DNA from: Bacteroidota bacterium
GTDB taxonomy: Bacteria; Bacteroidota; Bacteroidia; Bacteroidales; UBA7960
Length of the DNA stretch: 64,000 nucleotides
Assembly: GCA_018335675.1 (NCBI GenBank)
Contig: JAGXRQ010000129.1
Span: 6,253 to 70,252 of the forward strand
Reading direction: 5' to 3'
Position 1 is the stretch's first letter. Each line of letters opens with the position of its first letter. Positions 3,721 to 22,371 of the stretch are shown here, piece by piece. The position numbers and the translations under genes are program-made. The notes beneath the pieces were generated by a model, which ran no database searches, had not been told where the DNA came from, and saw only the letters and a program-made list of their open reading frames with translations.

Positions 3721-4263
3721 ATGATAAGAATTAAGAAACATAATCATTTAGCAAAGGCAGTTTTCCTCATAGCAGGAATAATTCTTGCCTTGCAATTAAA
3801 TGCTCAGCAATCTGAAATAAGGATGCAGTCAGTCTTTTTATATAACTTTACTAGGCTGGTATCTTGGCCGGCTGACTATCAACAAGGCGATTTTGTTATG
3901 GCCGTTTATGGTAGTACACCAATGCTTGAAGAAATTGAATCTTTGGCTGCAACAAGAAAAGCAGGAACTCAGAATATAGTTGCCAGAAAATTCAATTCTA
4001 TTAATGAGTTATCAAAATGCCATATCATTTATATTCCAAGAGGTGAATCTCGCAATACTACCAATATTGTGAATGGATTAAAAGAAAAGAACATTAAAGC
4101 ATTGATAGTGACTGATTCCAGAAATTCAATTAAAAGCGGAGCTGTGATAAACTTTACAATAGTTGATGGTAAACAACGATTTGAACTTAGTCAGGAAAAT
4201 GCTAAAATCATGGGACTTACTTTGGGTGGTGAAATTACTAGACTTGCTATTTTAGTTGATTAA
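3721..4263 (+). CDS. YfiR-family (DUF4154) periplasmic protein
   Basis: Signal peptide AVFLIAGIILALQLNAQ, then the hallmark VFLYNFTRLVSWP. I prefer the ATG at 3721 over the TTG at 3691 given in the ORF track. Confidence 0.7.
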   Translation: MIRIKKHNHLAKAVFLIAGIILALQLNAQQSEIRMQSVFLYNFTRLVSWPADYQQGDFVMAVYGSTPMLEEIESLAATRKAGTQNIVARKFNSINELSKCHIIYIPRGESRNTTNIVNGLKEKNIKALIVTDSRNSIKSGAVINFTIVDGKQRFELSQENAKIMGLTLGGEITRLAILVD

Positions 4264-4286
4264 TTAAGTCAATTTGAGAAGAATAT

Positions 4287-4321
4287 AAAAACTACCAAAA
4301 TCTTTTTTGGTAGTTTTTTTT
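4287..4321 (+). terminator. Rho-independent terminator after the YfiR-like gene
   Basis: AAAAACTACCAAAA-TCTT-TTTTGGTAGTTTTTTTT. The perfect 9-bp core stem is 4292-4300 paired with 4305-4313, extended by A/T pairs and followed by a T-run. Confidence 0.7.
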
Positions 4322-4435
4322 ATATTTCTAACAGTCTTCAAAATATTTTAATATTTTTGTTGCTAGCAAGAGATAATTTTATCTTTTAACTGTTTCCTCA
4401 ATTCTATCAAATAAGCGACAATAAAAAATAAAAAT

Positions 4436-6388
4436 ATGAAAATCAAACTAAGCATTGGTAGAAAACTTAGCCTTGGTTTTACCATTTTGATCGGTTTTTT
4501 CCTTTTTAGTAATATTTTTACTTTCTCGGTATTTAGGGAAAGTCAAAGGATAAACGACCAAAATAGTAATGTTTATGTACCTTCCATGTTATTGCTAATG
4601 GAGTTTAATAACATGATAATTACCAGTGAAAGATTAATTGGAAATTGGATTTTTATTCAAAGTGACATAGATACTCAAGATAAGAATCAACTAAAAGCTA
4701 TTATAGCTCAGGATTATATTGACATTAAAAGCAAACTTGTTAGAATTTCTGAGAATTGGGATTTAGAAATGCAAGAGAAATTGGAAGAAATTTTTAGCGA
4801 TGTTGATTTGCTGTTTGTTACTCACAAATATGTAATGGATGAGTTGGCAGACTGGACAAGCTACGACGATCCAATGATACTTTTCTTTGTACGTCCAATG
4901 ATGGAAGAGGGTGGCGATATTGCAATGATGACAAGAAAAATAACAAATCAACTAGACGAGCTTATAGATATTCAGAATCAAAACGTTGAGCTTGGTTATA
5001 AGCAAATGAATGATTCTTTAGATTCACTAGGAAGGCTTACCATTATATTAACGTTATTGCTAATTATAAGTGGAGCGCTAATAGCTTATTTCTCAATTAA
5101 GAGTATTACAAATCCTGTAAATAAACTTAGAGTTGCATTACAGCTTATGGGCCAGGGTAAAATTCCTGAAACTGCTGTTTATGTCACTAATGATGAGATA
5201 GGGGAAATGGCAAAGGCACTGAATTTCTTAGTCGATGGGTTGAAGGATAAATCTAGTTTCTCTGTTGAGATTGGTCAGGGAAATTTTGCATCAGATTTTA
5301 AACCGCTTAGTGAAGAGGATGATCTAGGACTTGCTCTTTTGGATATGCGCGAAAGTCTTAAAAATGCAAAAGAGGAAGAAAATAAAAGAAGAATCGAAGA
5401 TGACAAAAGATCATGGGCAACACATGGTATTGCTAAATTTGCCGAACTATTAAGGCAAAACAATGATAATATTCAAGAACTTTCTTTTAGCATTATAAAG
5501 AATCTTGTTAAGTATCTTGATGCTAATCAAGGAGGTATCTTTATTGTTAATGATGAAGAAATTGGCGAAAAATCAGTAGATATTAAGGCCTGTTTTGCCT
5601 ATGATAAAAAGAAATTCCTAAAGAAAACCATATATATAGGTGAAGGTCTTGTTGGAACATGCTTGCAAGAGGGAGAATCTATATTCTTAACCGACGTACC
5701 TGATACTTATGTTAATATTACTTCAGGATTAGGAGATTCTAATCCAAGATGTATTCTTATTGTTCCGTTAAAACTTAATGATGAAATATTTGGTGTTATT
5801 GAGATAGCATCATTTAAAATAATGGAATCTTATCAGATTGAATTTGTTGAAAGAATTGCAGAATCTATTGCTGCTACAATTTCAACAGTGAAGATAAATA
5901 TCAGAACAACAGAACTTTTACATCAATCACAGGAACAAAGTGAAGAAATGCGTGCTCAGGAAGAAGAAATGAGACAAAATATGGAAGAAATGCACGCTAC
6001 TCAGGAAGAGATGGAAAGGAAGGAAATCGAAAGCCAAAGCTTTTATGAGGCAATAAATGAGTCTGTGGCTCTGGTTGAAATTAGTATGGATGGAAATGTA
6101 AGACGCGTAAATAAAAAAGTATGTGACATACTATTATTTTCTGAGGGAGAATTGTCAGGCCATTCTCATGTGAAATTCTTTGATAAGTATTTTGTAGAGA
6201 CTTCTACGTACCATCAAATGTGGAGTGATTTAACTAATGGTCAAAAATTTGATGGAACAATTAGCTTAATCAAAAGGAATGGGACTAAGCTTTCTGCTCA
6301 GGTTGCTATACATTCAATTAAGAATAAATACAGAGAGCCTGTTAAAATAATTTTCATTATTCGAGAATATTCTGAGGTACATGCATAA
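4436..6388 (+). CDS. Membrane sensor: TM, helical extracytoplasmic domain, TM, HAMP, GAF, coiled coil, PAS. No output domain recognised.
   Basis: 650 aa. Two hydrophobic helices lie at about residues 10-30 and 200-222. HAMP-like NDEIGEMAKALNFLVDGL. GAF-like YLDANQGGIFI...IFGVIEIASFK. Coiled coil EEMRAQEEEMRQNMEEMHATQEEMERKE. The last ~120 aa are PAS-like. No H-box, ATPase or GGDEF motifs were seen. Confidence 0.8.
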   Translation: MKIKLSIGRKLSLGFTILIGFFLFSNIFTFSVFRESQRINDQNSNVYVPSMLLLMEFNNMIITSERLIGNWIFIQSDIDTQDKNQLKAIIAQDYIDIKSKLVRISENWDLEMQEKLEEIFSDVDLLFVTHKYVMDELADWTSYDDPMILFFVRPMMEEGGDIAMMTRKITNQLDELIDIQNQNVELGYKQMNDSLDSLGRLTIILTLLLIISGALIAYFSIKSITNPVNKLRVALQLMGQGKIPETAVYVTNDEIGEMAKALNFLVDGLKDKSSFSVEIGQGNFASDFKPLSEEDDLGLALLDMRESLKNAKEEENKRRIEDDKRSWATHGIAKFAELLRQNNDNIQELSFSIIKNLVKYLDANQGGIFIVNDEEIGEKSVDIKACFAYDKKKFLKKTIYIGEGLVGTCLQEGESIFLTDVPDTYVNITSGLGDSNPRCILIVPLKLNDEIFGVIEIASFKIMESYQIEFVERIAESIAATISTVKINIRTTELLHQSQEQSEEMRAQEEEMRQNMEEMHATQEEMERKEIESQSFYEAINESVALVEISMDGNVRRVNKKVCDILLFSEGELSGHSHVKFFDKYFVETSTYHQMWSDLTNGQKFDGTISLIKRNGTKLSAQVAIHSIKNKYREPVKIIFIIREYSEVHA

Positions 6389-6432
6389 TTTGGTGATTCT
6401 ATTTAAATAGGTTGCAACTAAAATTTATAGAA

Positions 6433-8772
6433 ATGTTTAATATTTTAGGCTTTTACAAAAAAATCAAAATCCAAAATAAACTTTTATTGTTTATTCTAAC
6501 TTTCACAATACTTATTTATATAGTTGCATTTTCTCTTGTTATTTCAGGTATGAGAAACAAAATATTTAGTGATGCTGAAAAGCTAATTCAGTCAAATGCG
6601 AGAGAATACGCCAATTTGGTTGGTGAAGAGTTGAATTTTGATTTCGATATTACACAAGGTATGGGTTGGTCTATGCATGGATTTAAAAATGTTCCACAAG
6701 AATTGTTTTTCTATTTTTATAAAGACATATTGAAAAATAATATTGAAAGAAATCCTAATTTTTATTCTACATGGATTAGTTGGGAACTTAGTGAAATAGA
6801 CCCTGATTATTATCTTCCATATGGTAGAATACGCCAAACGTACTTTAAACATGGCAATCAAATTAGGTACAAGCAAGATACTTTAAATCTTGGTGGTGAT
6901 GTTATAGGTGGACTTTATCACCAGGTTAAAGTAGCCATGAAAGATTATATGTCAGATCCATATTGGTATTCTTATACTGGAAGAACCGAAGATCAAGTTT
7001 TAGAAGTGAGTCCTTGTATCCCAATTATTATTAATGGAAAGTTTGCAGGGTTGGCAGGCTCTGATATTGTATTAAGTCGTTTCCAGGATTTATCTCAATC
7101 TATAAAGCCTTTTGATGTAGGATATACTTTTATAATTTCTAATAATGGAACTTATGTTGGGCATCCTAATGAGTCTTTTGTAGGCCAAAAAATTTCAGAT
7201 ATCAGACCCGAATACTCAAGAGAAAACAGCATTGTTGAAAAAATATCCAGAGGAGAGTTCTTTTCGCATGTGAGTCATGATAATTATTTCAATGGTGATG
7301 CTTATATTGCATACGCTCCTGTTTATATTGGAAATACTCAAATCCCATGGTCTGTTGGTTCAGCAGTTCCTATGAGTATCATTGTAAGCGAAGCAAACAG
7401 AATTTTACTTCGATCTATTATAGTCGCGATAATTGGTTTAGCATTACTTTCATACTTAATTTACATTGTAGCCAGAAGAATTTCAAAGCCTTTGTCAACA
7501 ATAAGTAGAGTTTTGGAAAAAATTGCTATAGGTGACCTTAGGGATACAAGAAAAATTAAAGTCAAAACAGAAGATGAAATAGGAACAATATCAAAAGCAT
7601 TGAACAGCTTAATTGATGGATTGAATAAAACTGCTGATTTTGCAAATGAAATTGGAAGAGGAAATCTTGAGGCTGAGTTTAATATGCTTGGAGACAATGA
7701 TGTTCTTGGCGAAGCCCTATTAAATATGAGAGAAAGTCTTAAACATGCTAATATTGAAGAAGTTAAAAGACAAGAGGAGGACAATAGAAGGAATTGGGCT
7801 ACTCAAGGGCATGCGATGTTTGCTGAAATATTAAGACAAAATAATGATGATATAAACACTTTGTCTTTTAATGTTATAAAAAATCTGGTAAAATATCTAA
7901 GTGCAAATCAGGGAGGAATATTTATTCTAAATGATGATGACGAAAAGAATAAGTTTTTAGAAATGAAAGCATGCTATGCATTTGATAGACAAAAATATTT
8001 AACCAAAAAGATTGAAATTGGTGAAGGACTTGTTGGCGCATGCTTCCTTGAAAAGAAAACGGTATATCTTGCTAAAGTGCCTGAAGATTATATTCTTATT
8101 ACATCAGGCTTAGGAGACGAAGTTCCATCAACAGTATTAATTGTGCCTTTAATTGTGAATGATAATATATTCGGGGTTGTTGAACTCGCTGCTTTCAAAC
8201 CATTTGATGCGCATTTTATTGATTTTGTTGAAAAAATAGGAGAGAGCATTGCTAGTACTATATCTTCTGTAAAGATAAATGTGCGCACCAAATTCTTATT
8301 GGAACAATCTCAGCAGCAAGCTGAGGAAATGTCGGCTCAGGAAGAGGAAATGCGTCAGAATATGGAAGAAATGCACGCCACTCAAGAAGAAATGGCTAGA
8401 AAGGAATTAACTCTTCAAAATGTAATAAAAACCACTAATACTTTTCAAATTTTTGTTGAATATGATTTTAATGGGATTATTAAAAACTCTAATGATCTTC
8501 TTTCCAACTTGTTAGGATATACTAAAGACGAACTTAGAGGTAAACATCATAGCATCTTATTTGCTGATGAAGATTATAAAGGGTCTGATGAGTATGGCGA
8601 CTTCTGGGTAAAAATGAATGACCAGGAGAATTTACTTCAGGAGTTTAGGTTACTTGCAAAGAATGGAGATATATTGACATTTACCGGTGTTTATCATCCT
8701 GTTTTTGACCAAGGGTATCCACTTAAAGTTATGCAGTTTGGGGTTAATGTTACAGACTATCTATGCAAATAG
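6433..8772 (+). CDS. Membrane sensor paralogue: TM, Cache-like extracytoplasmic domain, TM, HAMP, GAF, coiled coil, PAS. No output domain recognised.
   Basis: The extracytoplasmic part is about 290 aa with a Cache-like core (INGKFAGLAGSDIVLSRF...GYTFIISNNGTYVGHP). The cytoplasmic part is highly similar to the upstream gene (DEIGTISKALNSLIDGL, YLSANQGGIFI, FGVVELAAFK, AQEEEMRQNMEEMHATQEEM). The start is either ATG 6433 or TTG 6412. Confidence 0.8.
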   Translation: MFNILGFYKKIKIQNKLLLFILTFTILIYIVAFSLVISGMRNKIFSDAEKLIQSNAREYANLVGEELNFDFDITQGMGWSMHGFKNVPQELFFYFYKDILKNNIERNPNFYSTWISWELSEIDPDYYLPYGRIRQTYFKHGNQIRYKQDTLNLGGDVIGGLYHQVKVAMKDYMSDPYWYSYTGRTEDQVLEVSPCIPIIINGKFAGLAGSDIVLSRFQDLSQSIKPFDVGYTFIISNNGTYVGHPNESFVGQKISDIRPEYSRENSIVEKISRGEFFSHVSHDNYFNGDAYIAYAPVYIGNTQIPWSVGSAVPMSIIVSEANRILLRSIIVAIIGLALLSYLIYIVARRISKPLSTISRVLEKIAIGDLRDTRKIKVKTEDEIGTISKALNSLIDGLNKTADFANEIGRGNLEAEFNMLGDNDVLGEALLNMRESLKHANIEEVKRQEEDNRRNWATQGHAMFAEILRQNNDDINTLSFNVIKNLVKYLSANQGGIFILNDDDEKNKFLEMKACYAFDRQKYLTKKIEIGEGLVGACFLEKKTVYLAKVPEDYILITSGLGDEVPSTVLIVPLIVNDNIFGVVELAAFKPFDAHFIDFVEKIGESIASTISSVKINVRTKFLLEQSQQQAEEMSAQEEEMRQNMEEMHATQEEMARKELTLQNVIKTTNTFQIFVEYDFNGIIKNSNDLLSNLLGYTKDELRGKHHSILFADEDYKGSDEYGDFWVKMNDQENLLQEFRLLAKNGDILTFTGVYHPVFDQGYPLKVMQFGVNVTDYLCK

Positions 8773-14815: not shown

Positions 14816-15211
14816 ATGGATATTCATTCAAACGATGTTTTTCACATAAAAGGCACAGATGATACGCCTGAGGTACTTATAGATCCTGAAAAAGGTCTGA
14901 TAAAATTTTCAGGACGTTCTTTGCCGGAAGACCCTAAAGAGTTTTATATTCCAATAAAGGAAAACTTGGAAAAATATGCTGAAACTCCCACAAGTGGAAC
15001 AAAAGTTATATTCAAGTTTGAATATTTCAATACGGCATCGTCAAAAATAATTATGGAAATTATAGATATTGTTAAAAAAATATCAGCAAAAGATGATAAA
15101 GTTGTATACGAATGGCATTATCTTGAAGATGATGATGATATGAAAGAAGCAGGAGATGACTATGCAGATATTGCAGAGATTGAATTTAATTTTTACACAT
15201 ACGATGACTAG
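14816..15211 (+). CDS. SiaC-family (DUF1987) regulatory phosphoprotein-like protein
   Basis: 131 aa. IKGTDDTPEVLIDPEKGLIKFSGRSLPEDPKEFY ... FEYFNTASSKIIMEII ... YEWHY follows the same layout as Pseudomonas SiaC (GTQSTP..G.L...G.SYPEN ... LNTSS.K ... WHY). The C-terminus is acidic. Confidence 0.7.
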   Translation: MDIHSNDVFHIKGTDDTPEVLIDPEKGLIKFSGRSLPEDPKEFYIPIKENLEKYAETPTSGTKVIFKFEYFNTASSKIIMEIIDIVKKISAKDDKVVYEWHYLEDDDDMKEAGDDYADIAEIEFNFYTYDD

Positions 15212-17524: not shown

Positions 17525-18307
17525 TTATAATCTTTGCCTGTTTACTTCGAATAAAACAATTCCTGCAGCAACAGAAACATTTAGTGAAGCTGTTTTTCCT
17601 TTCATAGGAATAGAAGCTTTAGAATCGACCAGCTTTAAAATGTATGGAGAAATACCTTTATCTTCAGATCCCATTATTATTGCAACCGGCTTGGTCAGGT
17701 CTTCTGAGTAAATTGTACCGGGTGCTTTTTCTGTACAAGCAATGATAGATATTTCGCAAAGCCTTAGAAATTCTATTGTTTCCATAAGATCCTTTTCTCT
17801 GCATACCGGCATTCTTGACAATGCACCTGCAGATGTTTTAATAGCTTCTGCATTTATTGGAGCACTTCCTTTTTCCTGAATTATAATCCCGTGTGCCCCT
17901 GCGCACTCAGCACTACGAGCAATTGCACCAAGATTTCTGATATCTGTTACTTTATCCAAAATTATAATCAGTGGAATATCATCAGTTTTGGTGATATTTT
18001 TTATCAATTCTTCTACAGTAATGTAGTTTATAAGAGGTAAAAAAGCAATAACTCCCTGATGATTTCCCTTTGAAATCTTGTTGAGTTTCTCGATAGGAAC
18101 CATTTGGAATGGGATGTTGAGCTTTCTAATTAAATGAAATAAGCTTTTGAAATTATCTCCCGATGGTCCTTGTTGAAAAAGAACTTTCTCAGGAATTTTA
18201 CCTTCTTTGATTGCCTCATGTATAGGGCGAATACCATAAATTAAATTTTCCAATTCTGTACTGTTTTGTTTGTTTATTTTCTCCAATTTTCTATTCCTAG
18301 GTACCAT
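17525..18307 (-). CDS. rlmB: 23S rRNA 2'-O-ribose (Gm2251) methyltransferase, SpoU/TrmH family
   Basis: N-terminal substrate-binding part IYGIRPIHEAI. C-terminal SpoU motifs NLGAIARSAE, MGSEDKGIS and SLNVSVAAGI. Confidence 0.8.
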   Translation of the reverse strand: MVPRNRKLEKINKQNSTELENLIYGIRPIHEAIKEGKIPEKVLFQQGPSGDNFKSLFHLIRKLNIPFQMVPIEKLNKISKGNHQGVIAFLPLINYITVEELIKNITKTDDIPLIIILDKVTDIRNLGAIARSAECAGAHGIIIQEKGSAPINAEAIKTSAGALSRMPVCREKDLMETIEFLRLCEISIIACTEKAPGTIYSEDLTKPVAIIMGSEDKGISPYILKLVDSKASIPMKGKTASLNVSVAAGIVLFEVNRQRL

Positions 18308-19533
18308 GGATTTCTATAGTCTGCCTTTCTTTTTAAGACATAATGATTATCAGAGTAAGGATGCGACTTTTTAATGAATTCAAACTGTAATTCATTCATT
18401 CTCCAGGTATCTTTATAATGCCAGACTTCAAAACCATCATTTAAGATAACTATATCCGGCGCCCCAAAGATAGTATAAATCATGCCTCGATCTGTTTTCC
18501 AACCTTCTTTATATGAAGTGAAAAATATATTTGATAATTGGACATTGTTATAATAGCGGCTAACCAGACTTCTTGCTCTTACAGGATCTCCTGCAACTCC
18601 TACCCAAAATCTATCTATTGCACCACGCAAATCAGCGCTTTCTGAAACAGCCGAAAACTCAGTATTTGAAACTATATATCTTATAGGATTTAACATTGAT
18701 TGGTAAGATGTTAATTTTGGATATCCATCATGAAAATAAAACAAAGAAAACCCATTGAAAGTTTCATCACCATGAAAAAAACGACAATGACCATTTTTGT
18801 CAATATTTACTATAGCCTCACCATCAATAAATTTAATAATACCAATAGATTTAGTATTAATTTCTTCATCTGTAATGGTTTCTTCTAAAAAAGGTGGTCG
18901 TGCGGGTTTTAAATCTTCACTAATAAGCATTGCATTCATTTGAAAATCTGCTTTACTGTTGTGGTTTAACTTAATTACTGAAGAATTTGCAATGAAATTT
19001 GAAAAAGCCATTTCTCCGCCTGAGTTGTATATTTTGAAGTTTTGTGAGGAGTATGCATGCTGTTTTTTTATCTCATAAATATATGAAAGTTCAGACTTTT
19101 TATTGTGGTCGATAATTTTCAAATGCATTATATAATCGTTTCCGCTCTTGGCTTTAAATACGATGCTGTCTTGTATATACTTACCGGATTCAAAATGAAC
19201 AGAGTCTATTAATAATACAGATGCACTGTCTAAGGGTTTTGTAGAATTATATGAAGTAATAATATTGTAGCTAAGTGTAATTTTTGATTTAAACTTTGCT
19301 TCATCAGGCTTTTTTATGTAATGAAGTTCGTCTGATTTGATCCTGAAATAGAGTATCGATTCTTCATCATTCTGATGATAAATAATTACTTCTGGATTTA
19401 TTTCGGATAATTCCTGCTTATAAATATTCTGGAGGTTAAGATTGCTTACTTTTACTAATGTTCTGCATCCCCAAAGTGTAAAAAGCAGAAATAAAGTCAG
19501 GTTCAAACTATAAAATAATCTTCTATCCTTCAT
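18274..19533 (-). CDS. GWxTD domain-containing protein (secreted)
   Basis: The literal motif GWKTDRGMIYTIFGAPD lies near the C-terminus. The N-terminus has a signal or lipoprotein sequence (LWGC). Confidence 0.75.
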   Translation of the reverse strand: MKDRRLFYSLNLTLFLLFTLWGCRTLVKVSNLNLQNIYKQELSEINPEVIIYHQNDEESILYFRIKSDELHYIKKPDEAKFKSKITLSYNIITSYNSTKPLDSASVLLIDSVHFESGKYIQDSIVFKAKSGNDYIMHLKIIDHNKKSELSYIYEIKKQHAYSSQNFKIYNSGGEMAFSNFIANSSVIKLNHNSKADFQMNAMLISEDLKPARPPFLEETITDEEINTKSIGIIKFIDGEAIVNIDKNGHCRFFHGDETFNGFSLFYFHDGYPKLTSYQSMLNPIRYIVSNTEFSAVSESADLRGAIDRFWVGVAGDPVRARSLVSRYYNNVQLSNIFFTSYKEGWKTDRGMIYTIFGAPDIVILNDGFEVWHYKDTWRMNELQFEFIKKSHPYSDNHYVLKRKADYRNPWYLGIENWRK

Positions 19534-19716
19534 AATGAAAGTTTTTTCAAATATCGGAATTTTTTCTAAAATGCATTAATACTGTAATTTATTTGCGAGA
19601 TTAAGCAATATGTCTTAAAGTTTTGATATAGCAGCTAATTGCTCATAAAACTAAGGGAAACACTTAGTTTTTTATGTGATTTATGTTTAAATTTGACTTT
19701 CCTAAAAATAATAATC

Positions 19717-20628
19717 ATGGAATGGGATGAGATAATTGAAATGATTGAGGTTGCTAAGGCTCAAAAATGTAAGAAGCTAAGCTTATCCAACAGAGGCATT
19801 ACTTCATTGCCACCTGAAATCGGAAAACTTTCATTTCTTCAAAGCCTAGATTTATCATACAATCAGCTCGACAAACTTCCTGAGGAATTTCTAAAATTAT
19901 CCAATCTTAAGTCAATTTACCTAAATCATAATGAATTAGCAGTATTGCCGACCGATATTGGAAAATTAAAGAATCTAACAATATTAGATCTTAGCCACAA
20001 TTATTTAAATACTCTTCCAGCTTCTATAGGCAATATAGTAAACCTGACTCAACTGGATGTCAGTTATAATCAAATTAAGAAGCTTCCTATAGAGTTGATA
20101 AACCTGACCGGACTAAAAAAGTTATATCTTGAAGATAATCCATGTGAGTTTCCCCCAGAAAAAGTTATAAAACGTGGGCTATATGCCACAATGCATTACT
20201 TATTTGGAGAATTGAGGAAGAAGGAAACAGCAAAAGTTATGATTCAGGTTTATAATATGCCAAGAGATATTTCACAACCTTTCACGCAATATCTGCAGTA
20301 TTTCAATGAATTGGTTGCTTCCTTTAAGCATATGGATATAAATTTTGATGTTAAATTTATAAAGCAAGATTTTACGGCAGACATGGATATGGATCTTGAA
20401 ATGGAAAGTTATTTGCTTGATTTTATTAGCCATATAAAGAGAAATGTTGATGCTGCTCCAATGAAAGATGGTAAAAAAGATAAGTCGCAAGTTTTTGATG
20501 TGCAGGTTGTTGAGTTAAAATCTCATTTAGATGACCTTAAAACTCTTTTAGAAACCAAGATTCTGGATATAAAGGAATTGCAAACAAGAATGGAAAAGCT
20601 AAGCAACATAATCGAGAAAAAGAAATAG
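19717..20628 (+). CDS. Leucine-rich repeat protein with a coiled-coil C-terminal region
   Basis: About six tandem 23-aa LRRs (LxxLxLxxNxLxxLPxxIgxL). No signal peptide. I prefer the ATG at 19717 over the upstream TTG at 19639. Confidence 0.8.
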   Translation: MEWDEIIEMIEVAKAQKCKKLSLSNRGITSLPPEIGKLSFLQSLDLSYNQLDKLPEEFLKLSNLKSIYLNHNELAVLPTDIGKLKNLTILDLSHNYLNTLPASIGNIVNLTQLDVSYNQIKKLPIELINLTGLKKLYLEDNPCEFPPEKVIKRGLYATMHYLFGELRKKETAKVMIQVYNMPRDISQPFTQYLQYFNELVASFKHMDINFDVKFIKQDFTADMDMDLEMESYLLDFISHIKRNVDAAPMKDGKKDKSQVFDVQVVELKSHLDDLKTLLETKILDIKELQTRMEKLSNIIEKKK

Positions 20629-20631
20629 TCT

Positions 20632-22371
20632 CTAGAAAATGCTTGTAAAACCAATATGAATCTTTGCATTATTGAATCTGAAATTGTCTTCCTGTAATTT
20701 TCCTAAAGCATAATAAACTGATATTATACCTGGTTTTGTTTTGAAATGCAAACCTGCGGCAATTCCAATCGGAAAATTATTATAATAACCAATATTGCTA
20801 TAGTTTTCGATCCATGCTGCATTAGCTAAAAGGTTTAAATAGCTTTCTTTTGCTAGATAGAACCTGTATTCTGCCTCAATAATGCCGAAAGAACTACATT
20901 TTATTACATTTTCGTCAAATCCTTTCAATGAGCTAAACCCACCTATTCTATATAGTTCGTTATCAAGAAATATTTTCCCTGATTGGATGTTTGCTATTAT
21001 TGTTGCTGCAATCAAACTTCTATTTAATACAGGAATGTTATATCTGAATATACTTTCAGAAATTATCTGTGTAGTTTTTTCAGGAATTTGAATTTGAGAA
21101 TTGTTTTTTTCAACTATTCTACTTCCGGTTGCCAACGATGATTTAAAAAGCCATCCTTCATTTAATGTATGGTTTACCTTTCCTGATTTCATTCCGAATT
21201 CAATACCATAAAGATTCTTCTTATAATTTGCAGAGAAAATATTTTGAGAAGCAAAAATGGCAGGTTGTTGGAATAATTCATTTGATTCGAAAACAGCAAA
21301 TGCAGAAAAATCAAAATTTTTATATCCTGCAAAGGCTAATGATGGCCTGTGTTTAACTAGAATAAAAGAAGTATCTTGCTTGTTTATGTATAATGAATAG
21401 CCTGTTTTTATAGGAGTGCCTAAAATATATAGAAATTCTCCTGATAAATTTAGCTGCTGAGATCCTTCTCCCGGAGCCATCCACTTAATTTCAATATGTT
21501 CGCCATAGCTTAGACTGTTAATTAAAAACAAATTAAGTTGTCCGGAAATTCTGTATTTCTTATTGTTGATTTCATCTGGAAGTGTTATCAAACCTGCAAT
21601 GCCGTCGAATCTGTTGGCTTTAATAGACTGCAAAGGAAATTCAATTTCTGAACCTGAGGGAGTAAATTTAATCCCAGGAGTATTTGACAAGTTTGCAAAT
21701 TCAAGATCTGATAGTTTGTTGCCGGCATTATTTATTAGAATCTCAGAATATGGCATTCCTGTCTTAAGCCTTGTTAATCCTTTTATGTATGACGGCATAA
21801 GGTTTACATCTCCTAACAATTTGATTTCACTGATTGTAAATCGATTTCCTTTATTAATGTTCCACGTAAAAATTATCGTATCGCCCAAAAAAGAAATATT
21901 TTCCTTATAAATTGATGCTAGAGGAAATCCATTGTTTTCGAGGTTTTTGATAATTTCACTTTCAAAATAGCCTAGCTTTGAATATTCATAAGCTTGATTT
22001 AATGATTTGTTTTTTTTGAATACTTCAGGAAAGGAGCGTGATATTTCTTCAATATTTTTTGCTTTAAAGAAATGTTTGTTGCCAATATTGATATAAACAA
22101 AAGTATTGTTGCCGTATATTATTGTGCTGTCTATTACAGCCTTCAAATATCCTTTTTCTGCAAGATATTGAGGAAGTATTGTTAGATAATCTGCCTTTTC
22201 ATTATTAAGCTGAGCTTCTTTAAGCTTTTTATTTATAATTAAGACTTCAGCTTCTGAGATTTCATTGTTCTGAGTAAGAATTATTTGATAATCAACCTGA
22301 CAAACACAAGTATTTGTAATGATGAAAATTAATGAATATCCAAAAAATAATATTTTCAGGAAATAGCCCAT
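20632..22371 (-). CDS. Omp85-family (BamA/TamA/ShlB-like) outer-membrane protein with POTRA-like N-terminal region
   Basis: 579 aa with a signal peptide. [16 protein letters not shown] resembles the conserved Omp85 RxGGxxxLRGF loop-6 motif. The C-terminal residue is Phe. Confidence 0.6.

Follow-up and report, generated by a model that had tools for sequence, protein, structure and literature searches.

Two tandem membrane sensors without a recognisable output domain from a Bacteroidota bacterium: possible YfiR-gated, transmitter-less relatives of RsbK that may signal in trans

How does a membrane receptor signal when it carries an elaborate set of sensor domains and no recognisable output? 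This question is raised by a 64,000-nucleotide (nt) stretch of an uncultured Bacteroidota bacterium of the order Bacteroidales (contig JAGXRQ010000129.1; the whole stretch is referred to here as the window), in which a gene for a YfiR-like periplasmic protein of the DUF4154 family is followed on the same strand by two genes for related membrane sensors, designated sensor A and sensor B (Table 1). A sequence-only reading of the window had proposed that these genes form a YfiR-gated module, in which two inputs feed one shared cytoplasmic module that signals by protein contact through a terminal PAS domain and a coiled coil. The analysis described here indicates that the lack of an output domain is a trait of a very large family, whose front end is homologous to that of RsbK-type hybrid kinases, and suggests that signalling may proceed in trans through an invariant acidic helix rather than through the PAS domain.

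The three open reading frames (ORFs) were checked in the window, and genes called independently on the 78.5-kb metagenome contig from which it comes gave the same three proteins at the lengths listed in Table 1; together with the Pfam matches, this bears out the layout of a YfiR/DUF4154 protein followed by two same-strand sensors. Sensor A has transmembrane (TM) segments at residues 15-33 and 203-221 and passes the Pfam cut-offs for HAMP, GAF_2 (50 vs. 28.6 bits), and PAS_9. Sensor B has TM segments at residues 26-44 and 323-341 (numbered from the longer, 786-residue form), a HAMP domain at 353-405 (38.7 bits), and a GAF domain at 481-617 (GAF_2, 49.5 bits), and its PAS domain passes the NCBIfam model TIGR00229 (35.0 vs. 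22.9 bits). In both sensors, no HisKA, HATPase, GGDEF, EAL, HD-GYP, MCPsignal, STAS, SpoIIE, or HTH domain is found in Pfam or NCBIfam, even at E<1.

The two extracytoplasmic parts are of different types. An AlphaFold2 (AF2) model of residues 1-253 of sensor A (mean confidence score, pLDDT, 90.7) is a four-helix bundle (4HB) continuous with both TM helices, with helices at 7-73, 81-105, 110-136, and 161-239. No Pfam profile matches this ectodomain. Its top Foldseek matches in the PDB are the ligand-binding domain of Vc1313 (TMt 0.75), that of MCP2201, a sensor-TM-HAMP fragment of NarQ, and the ligand-binding domain of Tar; against chemoreceptor 4HB ligand-binding domains, TMt ranges from 0.65 to 0.75, yet the E-values are only 0.02-0.1. 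In addition, hhalign pairs it with the 4HB_MCP_1 domain of L108_7, one of the kinases described below. The ectodomain of sensor B scores 40.7 bits against dCache_1 (PF02743), which is below the cut-off of 45 and covers only the second half of the profile; dCache_1 is nevertheless listed for sensor B in the precomputed annotation of the contig, and a relative (L045) reaches 65.8 bits. The earlier statement that two different inputs are joined to one shared cytoplasmic module is correct, with a 4HB in sensor A and a dCache-like domain in sensor B.

The cytoplasmic part of sensor A (residues 296-650) was modelled with a pLDDT of 90.2 as a long N-terminal helix, a GAF domain, an uninterrupted helix of 79 residues, and a PAS domain, for which the PAS domain of NifL is a structural match (TMt 0.85). 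A Foldseek search of the PDB with this GAF-helix-PAS model returned only GAF and PAS structures, headed by phytochromes that end in a PAS or helical output (XccBphP, RpBphP1), and revealed no hidden enzyme fold, whether transmitter or cyclase. The claim that no recognisable output domain is present is therefore upheld by Pfam, NCBIfam, and the fold search alike. Two other assignments were considered and rejected. Kinship with NarX/NarQ is not indicated, since the NarX-like kinases of Bacteroidetes lack HAMP and GAF domains (PMC8199190) and belong to a different family. Likewise, one homologue is named a free Met-sulfoxide reductase, but the GAF domain contains no invariant Cys.

Is the missing output the result of truncation? 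A word-indexed search returned at least 3,232 homologues, and the best 120 of these, from which lengths and domains were taken, are 412-691 amino acids (aa) long, contain only HAMP, GAF, and PAS domains, and come from Bacteroidota where named. When the GAF+helix module served as query in an exhaustive phmmer search, 13,190 representative clusters matched, with lengths up to 2,405 aa; 4,110 did so at E<=1e-30. Among the longer relatives, 49 were scanned, 44 with lengths of 900-1,300 aa and five with lengths of 1,367-2,405 aa. Their domains are GAF, HAMP, and up to ten copies of PAS, with ectodomains of the dCache_1, sCache_3, Cache_3-Cache_2, or PilJ type, and the helix motif described below is repeated ahead of each PAS in the long forms; none contains HisKA, HATPase, GGDEF, EAL, SpoIIE, MCPsignal, or REC. 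Since the close homologues, of which there are more than 3,200, carry sensor domains only, as do the 49 longer relatives scanned, the missing output is a family trait rather than a truncation, and the orthologues are not longer kinases. With no kinase in the protein, the signal would have to go to a separately encoded partner. Furthermore, many members of 546-595 aa end 25-100 residues past the Met/Glu/Gln-rich segment and have no PAS at all. The PAS domain is thus optional within the family and cannot be its essential output, a role that had been proposed for it together with the coiled coil.

This family of output-less HAMP-GAF receptors is very large, with at least 577 loci in Bacteroidales/Marinilabiliales and Cytophagales, and it appears to be undescribed: a literature search found no account of kinase-less HAMP-GAF receptors in Bacteroidota. 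Two loci illustrate its range. In a metagenome-assembled genome (MAG) of Bacteroidales (L076:4270-16142), five dCache-type paralogues of 766-786 aa lie in tandem on one strand, an expansion like that of methyl-accepting chemotaxis proteins (MCPs). In Rhodocytophaga aerolata (L079:9894-15458), a family member of 970 aa has genes for a true MCP (1,051 aa), CheY, and a full-length CheB within a few kb, and the family can therefore coexist with classical chemotaxis genes.

If the PAS domain is dispensable, which element is common to all of these proteins? In a 20-sequence alignment, the densest invariant block of the whole protein lies within the long helix between GAF and PAS and reads, in sensor A, Q508-E-E-E-M-R-Q-N-x-E-E-x-x-x-T-Q-E524, with Q508, E509, E510, E511, M512, R513, Q514, N515, E517, E518, T522, Q523, and E524 invariant. 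A profile of 88 members places acidic pairs at positions -5/-4, 2/3, 9/10, and 16/17, in exact heptad spacing; the peptide that would be modified is QEEEMRQNMEELQATQEE. The two central pairs are invariably EE, and the second residues of the flanking pairs alternate between E and Q (51:37 and 74:6). Between sensors A and B, the Met/Glu/Gln segment differs at 11 of 72 nucleotides and at one residue, that is, 11 synonymous-type differences against one amino-acid change, which argues for strong purifying selection on the helix. The heptad pattern resembles that of chemoreceptors. In the annotated K-12 record of Escherichia coli Tar, the sites Q295, E302, and Q309 form EQ, EE, and EQ pairs in the same heptad arrangement, and NMEELQAT of the family aligns with SMEQLTAT of Tar around Q309. 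The conservation of exposed polar residues exceeds what a coiled coil needs and would reflect a conserved partner or enzyme acting on the helix surface. The segment described earlier as a coiled coil is not a generic one; no other part of the family is as highly conserved, and the hybrid kinases discussed next have a homologous helix between their GAF and kinase domains. We infer that this invariant helix, and not the PAS domain, is the common output element.

The front end of the family is homologous to that of CheR-linked hybrid kinases of RsbK architecture. By hhalign, the window family aligns with the CheR-adjacent kinase L108_7 over 469 columns (query 6-540 vs. 2-493 of the kinase), from TM1 into the helix, at a probability of 99.7%, E=5.3e-26, and about 24% identity. 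This homology of sequence profiles covers the ectodomain, TM segments, HAMP, GAF, and acidic helix; the kinase compared was a CheR-adjacent one of RsbK architecture, and RsbK itself entered the comparison by its published description. A reverse test gave a related picture, in which CheR adjoined mostly hybrid kinases rather than PP2C/SiaC genes, although three loci (L146, L149, and L084) hold true family receptors tightly beside CheR. An alignment of the family-linked CheR proteins was used to retrieve 80 metagenome loci, and the 49 of at least 6 kb were analysed. A protein matching the GAF+helix module of the window is encoded in 36 of the 49, usually directly upstream of CheR, with a CheB or REC protein downstream; an MCP domain is present in one locus and CheW in one. 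In 33 of 40 such matching proteins, the alignment extends through the helix, where QQEELRxTNEELEE heptads are repeated. Three of the CheR-linked proteins were scanned and proved to be 4HB_MCP_1/HAMP-GAF-HisKA-HATPase-REC hybrid kinases.

RsbK of Bacillus cereus consists of CHASE3, HAMP, GAF, an S-helix, HK, CA, and REC; its S-helix is methylated by the CheR-type protein RsbM, its signal passes to RsbY, a response regulator of the PP2C type, and on to the RsbV/RsbW/sigma-B switch, and 127 RsbK-like kinases have been counted in ten phyla (PMC4574943). BmsA and CfcA of Pseudomonas are CHASE3/GAF hybrid kinases, and a bmsA orthologue is located with cheR, cheB, and a hybrid kinase gene (PMC8175716, PMC6849547). 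The window sensors share with RsbK a helical ectodomain, TM segments, HAMP, GAF, and an acidic signalling helix, which in RsbK is the target of CheR-type methylation; moreover, the output of RsbK to a PP2C partner switch is paralleled by PP2C and SiaC genes beside some family receptors. However, the sensors lack HisKA, HATPase, and REC, and after the helix comes either a PAS domain or the end of the protein; the family ectodomain may also be dCache or sCache; a CheB-only esterase joins CheR in family-linked operons, whereas RsbM is reported as an orphan methyltransferase; and between HAMP and GAF the family carries an extra, conserved insert some 55 residues long. Thus, of the earlier suggestion that the wiring of these sensors is undescribed, the part that concerns the loss of the kinase stands, whereas for the front end, and probably for the way it is controlled, a relative has been described. 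In the segment that connects HAMP to GAF (EIGxGNF...PLSExDxLGxxLxxMRxxL), several residues are invariant, and RsbK-type kinases lack this segment; from the pattern EIGxGNF...DxLGxxLxxMRxxL, the insert looks like a degenerate second HAMP domain.

Resemblance to the MCPs of E. coli (Tar, Tsr) extends to the 4HB or dCache ectodomain, the TM2-HAMP connection, the many scattered paralogues per genome, and the helix with its heptad EE/EQ pairs, one of them followed by x-x-A-T, and with E/Q alternation at the flanks; some members also adjoin CheR and CheB. On the other hand, the family has no MCPsignal domain (PF00015), no hairpin tip, and no nearby CheA or CheW, a GAF domain precedes the helix, and the helix is single-pass rather than an antiparallel hairpin.

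Are any family receptors linked to enzymes that could act on such a helix? Gene neighbourhoods were sampled in 80 family loci from named genomes, and CheR and CheB were searched by phmmer with the E. coli proteins as queries. A CheR homologue is encoded within two genes of the family receptor in six loci (L054, L057, L060, L067, L073, and L077), none of which holds a canonical MCP, and two of the six also hold a CheB_methylest-only protein. With L146, L149, and L084, nine loci in total have a true family receptor adjoining CheR, and six of the nine also contain CheB and/or a GAF-PAS-PP2C/DUF6272/SiaC switch. The most complete is L077 (Pfam CheR, E=1.7e-41; CheB_methylest, E=1.3e-49), where the order is a receptor with the helix motif, a HisKA protein, CheR, CheB, a small GAF protein, a HAMP-GAF-PAS-SpoIIE protein, DUF6272, SiaC, and a TerB-ABC transporter fusion; the genes are 1-4 nt apart or overlapping and form a tight operon. 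In Draconibacterium (L073), the same gene set is transcribed away from a receptor of the dCache type. A homologous helix that has diverged slightly, EQQEILRQNAEEMQASQEEL or ENEEELHQNAEEMRATQEEL, is part of the PP2C proteins. In L077, L060, and L067, they have N-terminal TM hairpins without an ectodomain and consequently need an external sensor. It was considered whether the PP2C-fused proteins are orthologues of the window sensors, and this was rejected; they are operon partners of family receptors. No paper on a CheR/CheB-PP2C-SiaC operon in Bacteroidota was found in the literature.

Several further observations concern these operons. In L146 (696-4160), a receptor with the exact helix motif has CheR-like genes on both sides, at gaps of 22 and 14 nt. 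The L077 operon ends, after a 4-nt overlap, in a 923-aa TerB + ABC_tran + ABC2_membrane fusion (18209-20980), a candidate for the final target of the switch. In L077, L060, and L067, what precedes the CheR-linked receptor is not YfiR: an outer-membrane barrel of BBP2-like type (385 aa) lies there (L077:8380-9990) together with an exported protein of 146 aa that is conserved, has no Pfam match, and may constitute another periplasmic accessory module. This small exported protein was tried as a diverged YfiR and rejected (hhalign 1.7%).

The window itself contains a SiaC-family gene, which matches the SiaC genes of the CheR-PP2C operons beside receptors at E=1e-31 to 1e-33 (phmmer) and is possibly a downstream switch component of the pathway. 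With the SiaABCD system of Pseudomonas aeruginosa (PMC8457831), the operons beside receptors share a HAMP-containing PP2C protein, a small DUF6272 protein in the position of SiaB, and a SiaC-family protein. The family-linked operons differ from it in that they have no SiaD-type cyclase, their PP2C protein carries GAF-helix-PAS, and CheR and CheB are present; in the window, SiaC is solitary and not syntenic with the sensors.

The question of input leads to the gene upstream of sensor A. The YfiR-like protein matches DUF4154 at E=2.8e-29 (102.5 bits vs. a cut-off of 24.9; profile positions 3-142 of 143) and has a single N-terminal hydrophobic segment at residues 10-28. It misses the equivalog level in NCBIfam (sequest_YfiR, 15.2 vs. 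85 bits; TOL_0243 YfiR-like, 94.9 vs. 125); by these profile scores, it is a member of the DUF4154 family and not a YfiR equivalog. Of the 80 loci, 39, from both Bacteroidales and Cytophagales, have a YfiR-like gene as the immediate upstream neighbour of the receptor and in the same orientation, and an HMM search of the 80 loci for further YfiR-like genes added none. It is the only strongly conserved neighbour; the others are housekeeping genes only (prfA, msrA, truA, an aminotransferase, NUDIX). The gap to the receptor ranges from -38 to 390 nt (median 98), reaching values as small as 3-16 nt, and because it is at most 51 nt in 14 of the 39 loci, the pair is operonic in many lineages, even if a terminator-like hairpin separates the two genes in the window. 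The order NUDIX, YfiR-like, A, B is repeated in the closest Bacteroidales MAGs, and the A+B tandem is present in L001, L004, L005, L006, and L007.

The adjacency depends on the type of receptor. It is seen for 37 of 49 PAS-tailed 4HB-type receptors, for two of 15 short ones, and never for the dCache type. Thus, conservation of the DUF4154 neighbour, on which the earlier proposal of a YfiR-gated module of two sensors depended, holds across two orders, and that proposal may be kept for the 4HB type, represented by sensor A, but not for the dCache type, represented by sensor B. In YfiBNR of P. aeruginosa and HmsCDE of Yersinia, periplasmic YfiR acts on the periplasmic domain of an inner-membrane signalling protein, which it thereby represses; in Pseudomonas this protein is YfiN. 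By analogy, and supported by the conserved adjacency, the most likely role of the YfiR-like protein is to gate the four-helix bundle of sensor A. The likeness to these systems lies in a DUF4154 protein with an export signal that is encoded directly upstream of a two-TM HAMP receptor, an adjacency that is kept across orders. The differences are that the window receptor has no GGDEF domain, that its ectodomain is a four-helix bundle and not of the YfiN type, that no gene for a YfiB/OmpA-like lipoprotein is found near the window sensors, and that the window protein falls below the NCBIfam cut-offs for YfiR. In 14 Cytophagales loci (e.g., L047:11850-12509), the next gene after the receptor, in the same orientation, encodes a Tll0287-like lipoprotein (PF11845, E=1.8e-21) that has a CxxCH haem motif; together with an upstream YfiR-like gene, this makes a three-gene unit with two periplasmic accessory proteins.

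Taken together, these results have led us to a model in which the window proteins are YfiR-gated, transmitter-less RsbK-like receptors that signal in trans through a probably methylatable helix, and we regard the chances for and against it as evenly balanced. In this model, the YfiR-like protein would bind the periplasmic four-helix bundle of sensor A and fix one signalling state, as YfiR does with YfiN, while sensor B would read a small ligand through its dCache domain. The conformational signal would pass through HAMP and GAF to the long dimeric helix, whose acidic face would be the functional output and would be read in trans by a separately encoded partner with a related GAF-helix-PAS module. 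This partner would most likely be a SiaA-like PP2C phosphatase that is membrane-anchored and has no sensor of its own, or perhaps, in some lineages, a kinase. As the S-helix of RsbK is tuned by RsbM, so this helix would probably be tuned by glutamate methylation of the CheR/CheB type; the heptad pattern and the gene linkage suggest that it is probably a CheR/CheB substrate. The PAS domain would supply a second, cytoplasmic input or a contact.

A number of results weigh against this model. No gene for CheR, CheB, PP2C, or DUF6272 is present in the 64-kb window or in the 5.6 kb of contig past its left edge, and the link of sensors A and B to these proteins is drawn from family-level homology. 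CheR is found within 10 kb in only six of the 80 receptor-anchored loci, and none of those six has a YfiR-like gene. Synteny of SiaC with the sensors was rejected, since the gene, which lies 8.4 kb downstream in the window, is absent at the equivalent position in L001, L004, and L005. The sensors show no similarity to MCPsignal (PF00015) at E<1, and only one acidic pair of the four (E9-E10, then x-x-A-T) fully fits the MCP consensus. The evidence for methylation of the helix consists of the sequence pattern and gene linkage, and even in the operons, the target of CheR and CheB could be the PP2C protein or the kinase rather than the receptor. Finally, contact between receptor and partner is a prediction, and the monomer AF2 model says nothing on hetero-oligomers. 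However, the E. coli genes tsr, trg, and aer are located outside the che operon. Because MCP genes far from adaptation genes are normal, the low frequency of CheR adjacency weighs little against the model.

The rival that best survives is that signalling occurs purely by protein contact, in which the terminal PAS domain or the helix would bind an unlinked partner that is unrelated to CheR/CheB or PP2C and no methylation would take place, as in phytochromes whose PAS or two-helix output binds a repressor. If so, the absence of CheR, CheB, and PP2C from the window and the lack of a nearby CheR in 74 of the 80 loci would be expected, and the structural matches to XccBphP, with its PAS9 output, and to RpBphP1, which swaps protomers with its repressor, would fit as well; the periplasmic or haem partners that differ by lineage, such as the Tll0287-like protein of 14 loci, point in the same direction. 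However, it is the helix that is invariant, whereas the PAS is missing from many members; this helix is homologous to that of CheR-linked kinases; receptors adjoin CheR in nine loci; and the conserved exposed polar residues (Q, E, N, T) point to one common partner or enzyme throughout the family. We therefore consider this explanation rather unlikely, although it deserves to be taken seriously.

Alternatively, the sensors might be paralogues without a kinase that enter into mixed dimers with complete hybrid kinases of the RsbK type, or with HisKA proteins such as L077_10, and modulate them as co-receptors or dominant-negative subunits. The complete front-end homology to such kinases, the several paralogues per locus, and the gene for a 379-aa HisKA protein that comes next after the receptor gene in L077 and L067 would all be compatible with this idea, which we nonetheless judge to be improbable: none of the 80 Bacteroidota receptor loci contains an RsbK-type kinase, the CheR-adjoining kinases come from other metagenome lineages at only about 24% identity, and the insert between HAMP and GAF, which these kinases lack, argues against register-matched heterodimers. 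That the sensors are decayed or truncated kinases, or ligand sinks without a signalling role, would explain the lack of an output domain and nothing else, and it is very hard to credit given the same end point in thousands of homologues from two orders, the purifying selection on the helix, and the intactness of both ORFs.

A broader version of the preferred model, signalling in trans through the acidic helix, would hold that Bacteroidota possess a CheA-independent system resembling chemosensing, composed of thousands of transmitter-less receptors with a 4HB, dCache, or sCache ectodomain, HAMP-GAF, and a single-pass methyl-accepting helix, dedicated CheR and CheB that adapt this helix, trans control of a membrane-anchored GAF-PAS-PP2C phosphatase and of DUF6272/SiaC, and accessory gating of particular receptors by YfiR-like or Tll0287-like proteins; this we put forward as a tentative suggestion. 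Sensors A and B would be two of these receptors, and a third kind of methylation-adapted pathway would stand beside MCP-CheA arrays and RsbK-type kinases. To our knowledge, Bacteroidota mostly lack classical chemotaxis. If the helix is indeed the output and is methylated, adaptation by methylation would reach beyond chemoreceptors and RsbK-type kinases and include receptors whose target in trans is a phosphatase switch, and the orphan CheR/CheB genes of Bacteroidota would gain a substrate. The conserved YfiR-like partner would widen gating of the YfiR type beyond cyclic di-GMP cyclases. Judged from these comparisons, what is known is the RsbK-type front end, and what appears to be new is its kinase-less form with YfiR-type gating. 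Because censuses of signal transduction sort proteins by output domain, output-less families are missed, and this one has been invisible to them in spite of its thousands of members, its up to five tandem copies per locus, and its proteins of up to 2,400 residues. Cultured carriers of the family, in which these ideas can be tested, include Draconibacterium, Marivirga, Fulvivirga, and Pseudochryseolinea.

Table 1. Positions in the window of the YfiR-like gene, the two sensor genes with their parts, and the SiaC-family gene
Feature	Position	Strand	Basis or remark
YfiR-like periplasmic protein (DUF4154), 180 aa	3721..4263	+	Pfam PF13689; alternative start TTG 3691
Terminator-like hairpin between YfiR-like gene and sensor A	4287..4318	+	14-bp stem, 4-nt loop, then T-run
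Sensor A, 650 aa: TM1, four-helix-bundle ectodomain, TM2, HAMP, HAMP-like insert, GAF, ~79-residue helix, PAS; without transmitter	4436..6388	+	
Sensor A ectodomain, residues 34-202, four-helix bundle	4535..5041	+	AF2, Foldseek, hhalign
Sensor A HAMP, residues 221-270	5096..5245	+	Pfam PF00672, E=4.4e-06, 27.4 bits vs. cut-off 25
Sensor A segment between HAMP and GAF, residues 271-344	5246-5467	+	Several invariant residues
Sensor A GAF, residues 345-482	5468..5881	+	Pfam GAF_2, E=4.7e-13; AF2 GAF fold
Sensor A single long helix from GAF to PAS, residues 465-543	5828..6064	+	AF2 helix 170-248 of model, block pLDDT 90-97
Sensor A invariant acidic heptad core EEMRAQEEEMRQNMEEMHATQEEM, candidate methyl-accepting or docking site	5942..6013	+	Alignment with 16 invariant columns within 17 residues; profile of 88 members; aligned with helix after GAF in CheR-linked kinases
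Sensor A C-terminal PAS, residues 545-647	6068..6376	+	Pfam PAS_9, 29.8 bits vs. cut-off 27; AF2 PAS fold
Sensor B, 779 aa: TM1, dCache-like ectodomain, TM2, HAMP, GAF, long helix, PAS; without transmitter	6433..8772	+	
Sensor B invariant acidic heptad core EEMSAQEEEMRQNMEEMHATQEEM	8323..8394	+	Sequence comparison with sensor A core
SiaC-family (DUF1987) gene, unlinked to sensors	14816..15211	+	Pfam PF09345, E=1.6e-34

The hairpin that had been reported to separate the YfiR-like gene from the sensors was found again, with its stem and T-run, and no terminator-like hairpin is present in the 23-nt gap between sensors A and B. The start of sensor B is ambiguous: TTG at 6412 would give 786 aa and ATG at 6433 gives 779 aa, the latter being used by the gene call on the contig. 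Flanking genes in the window encode a C92 amidase, a DUF4878 protein, a NUDIX protein, and MqnA.

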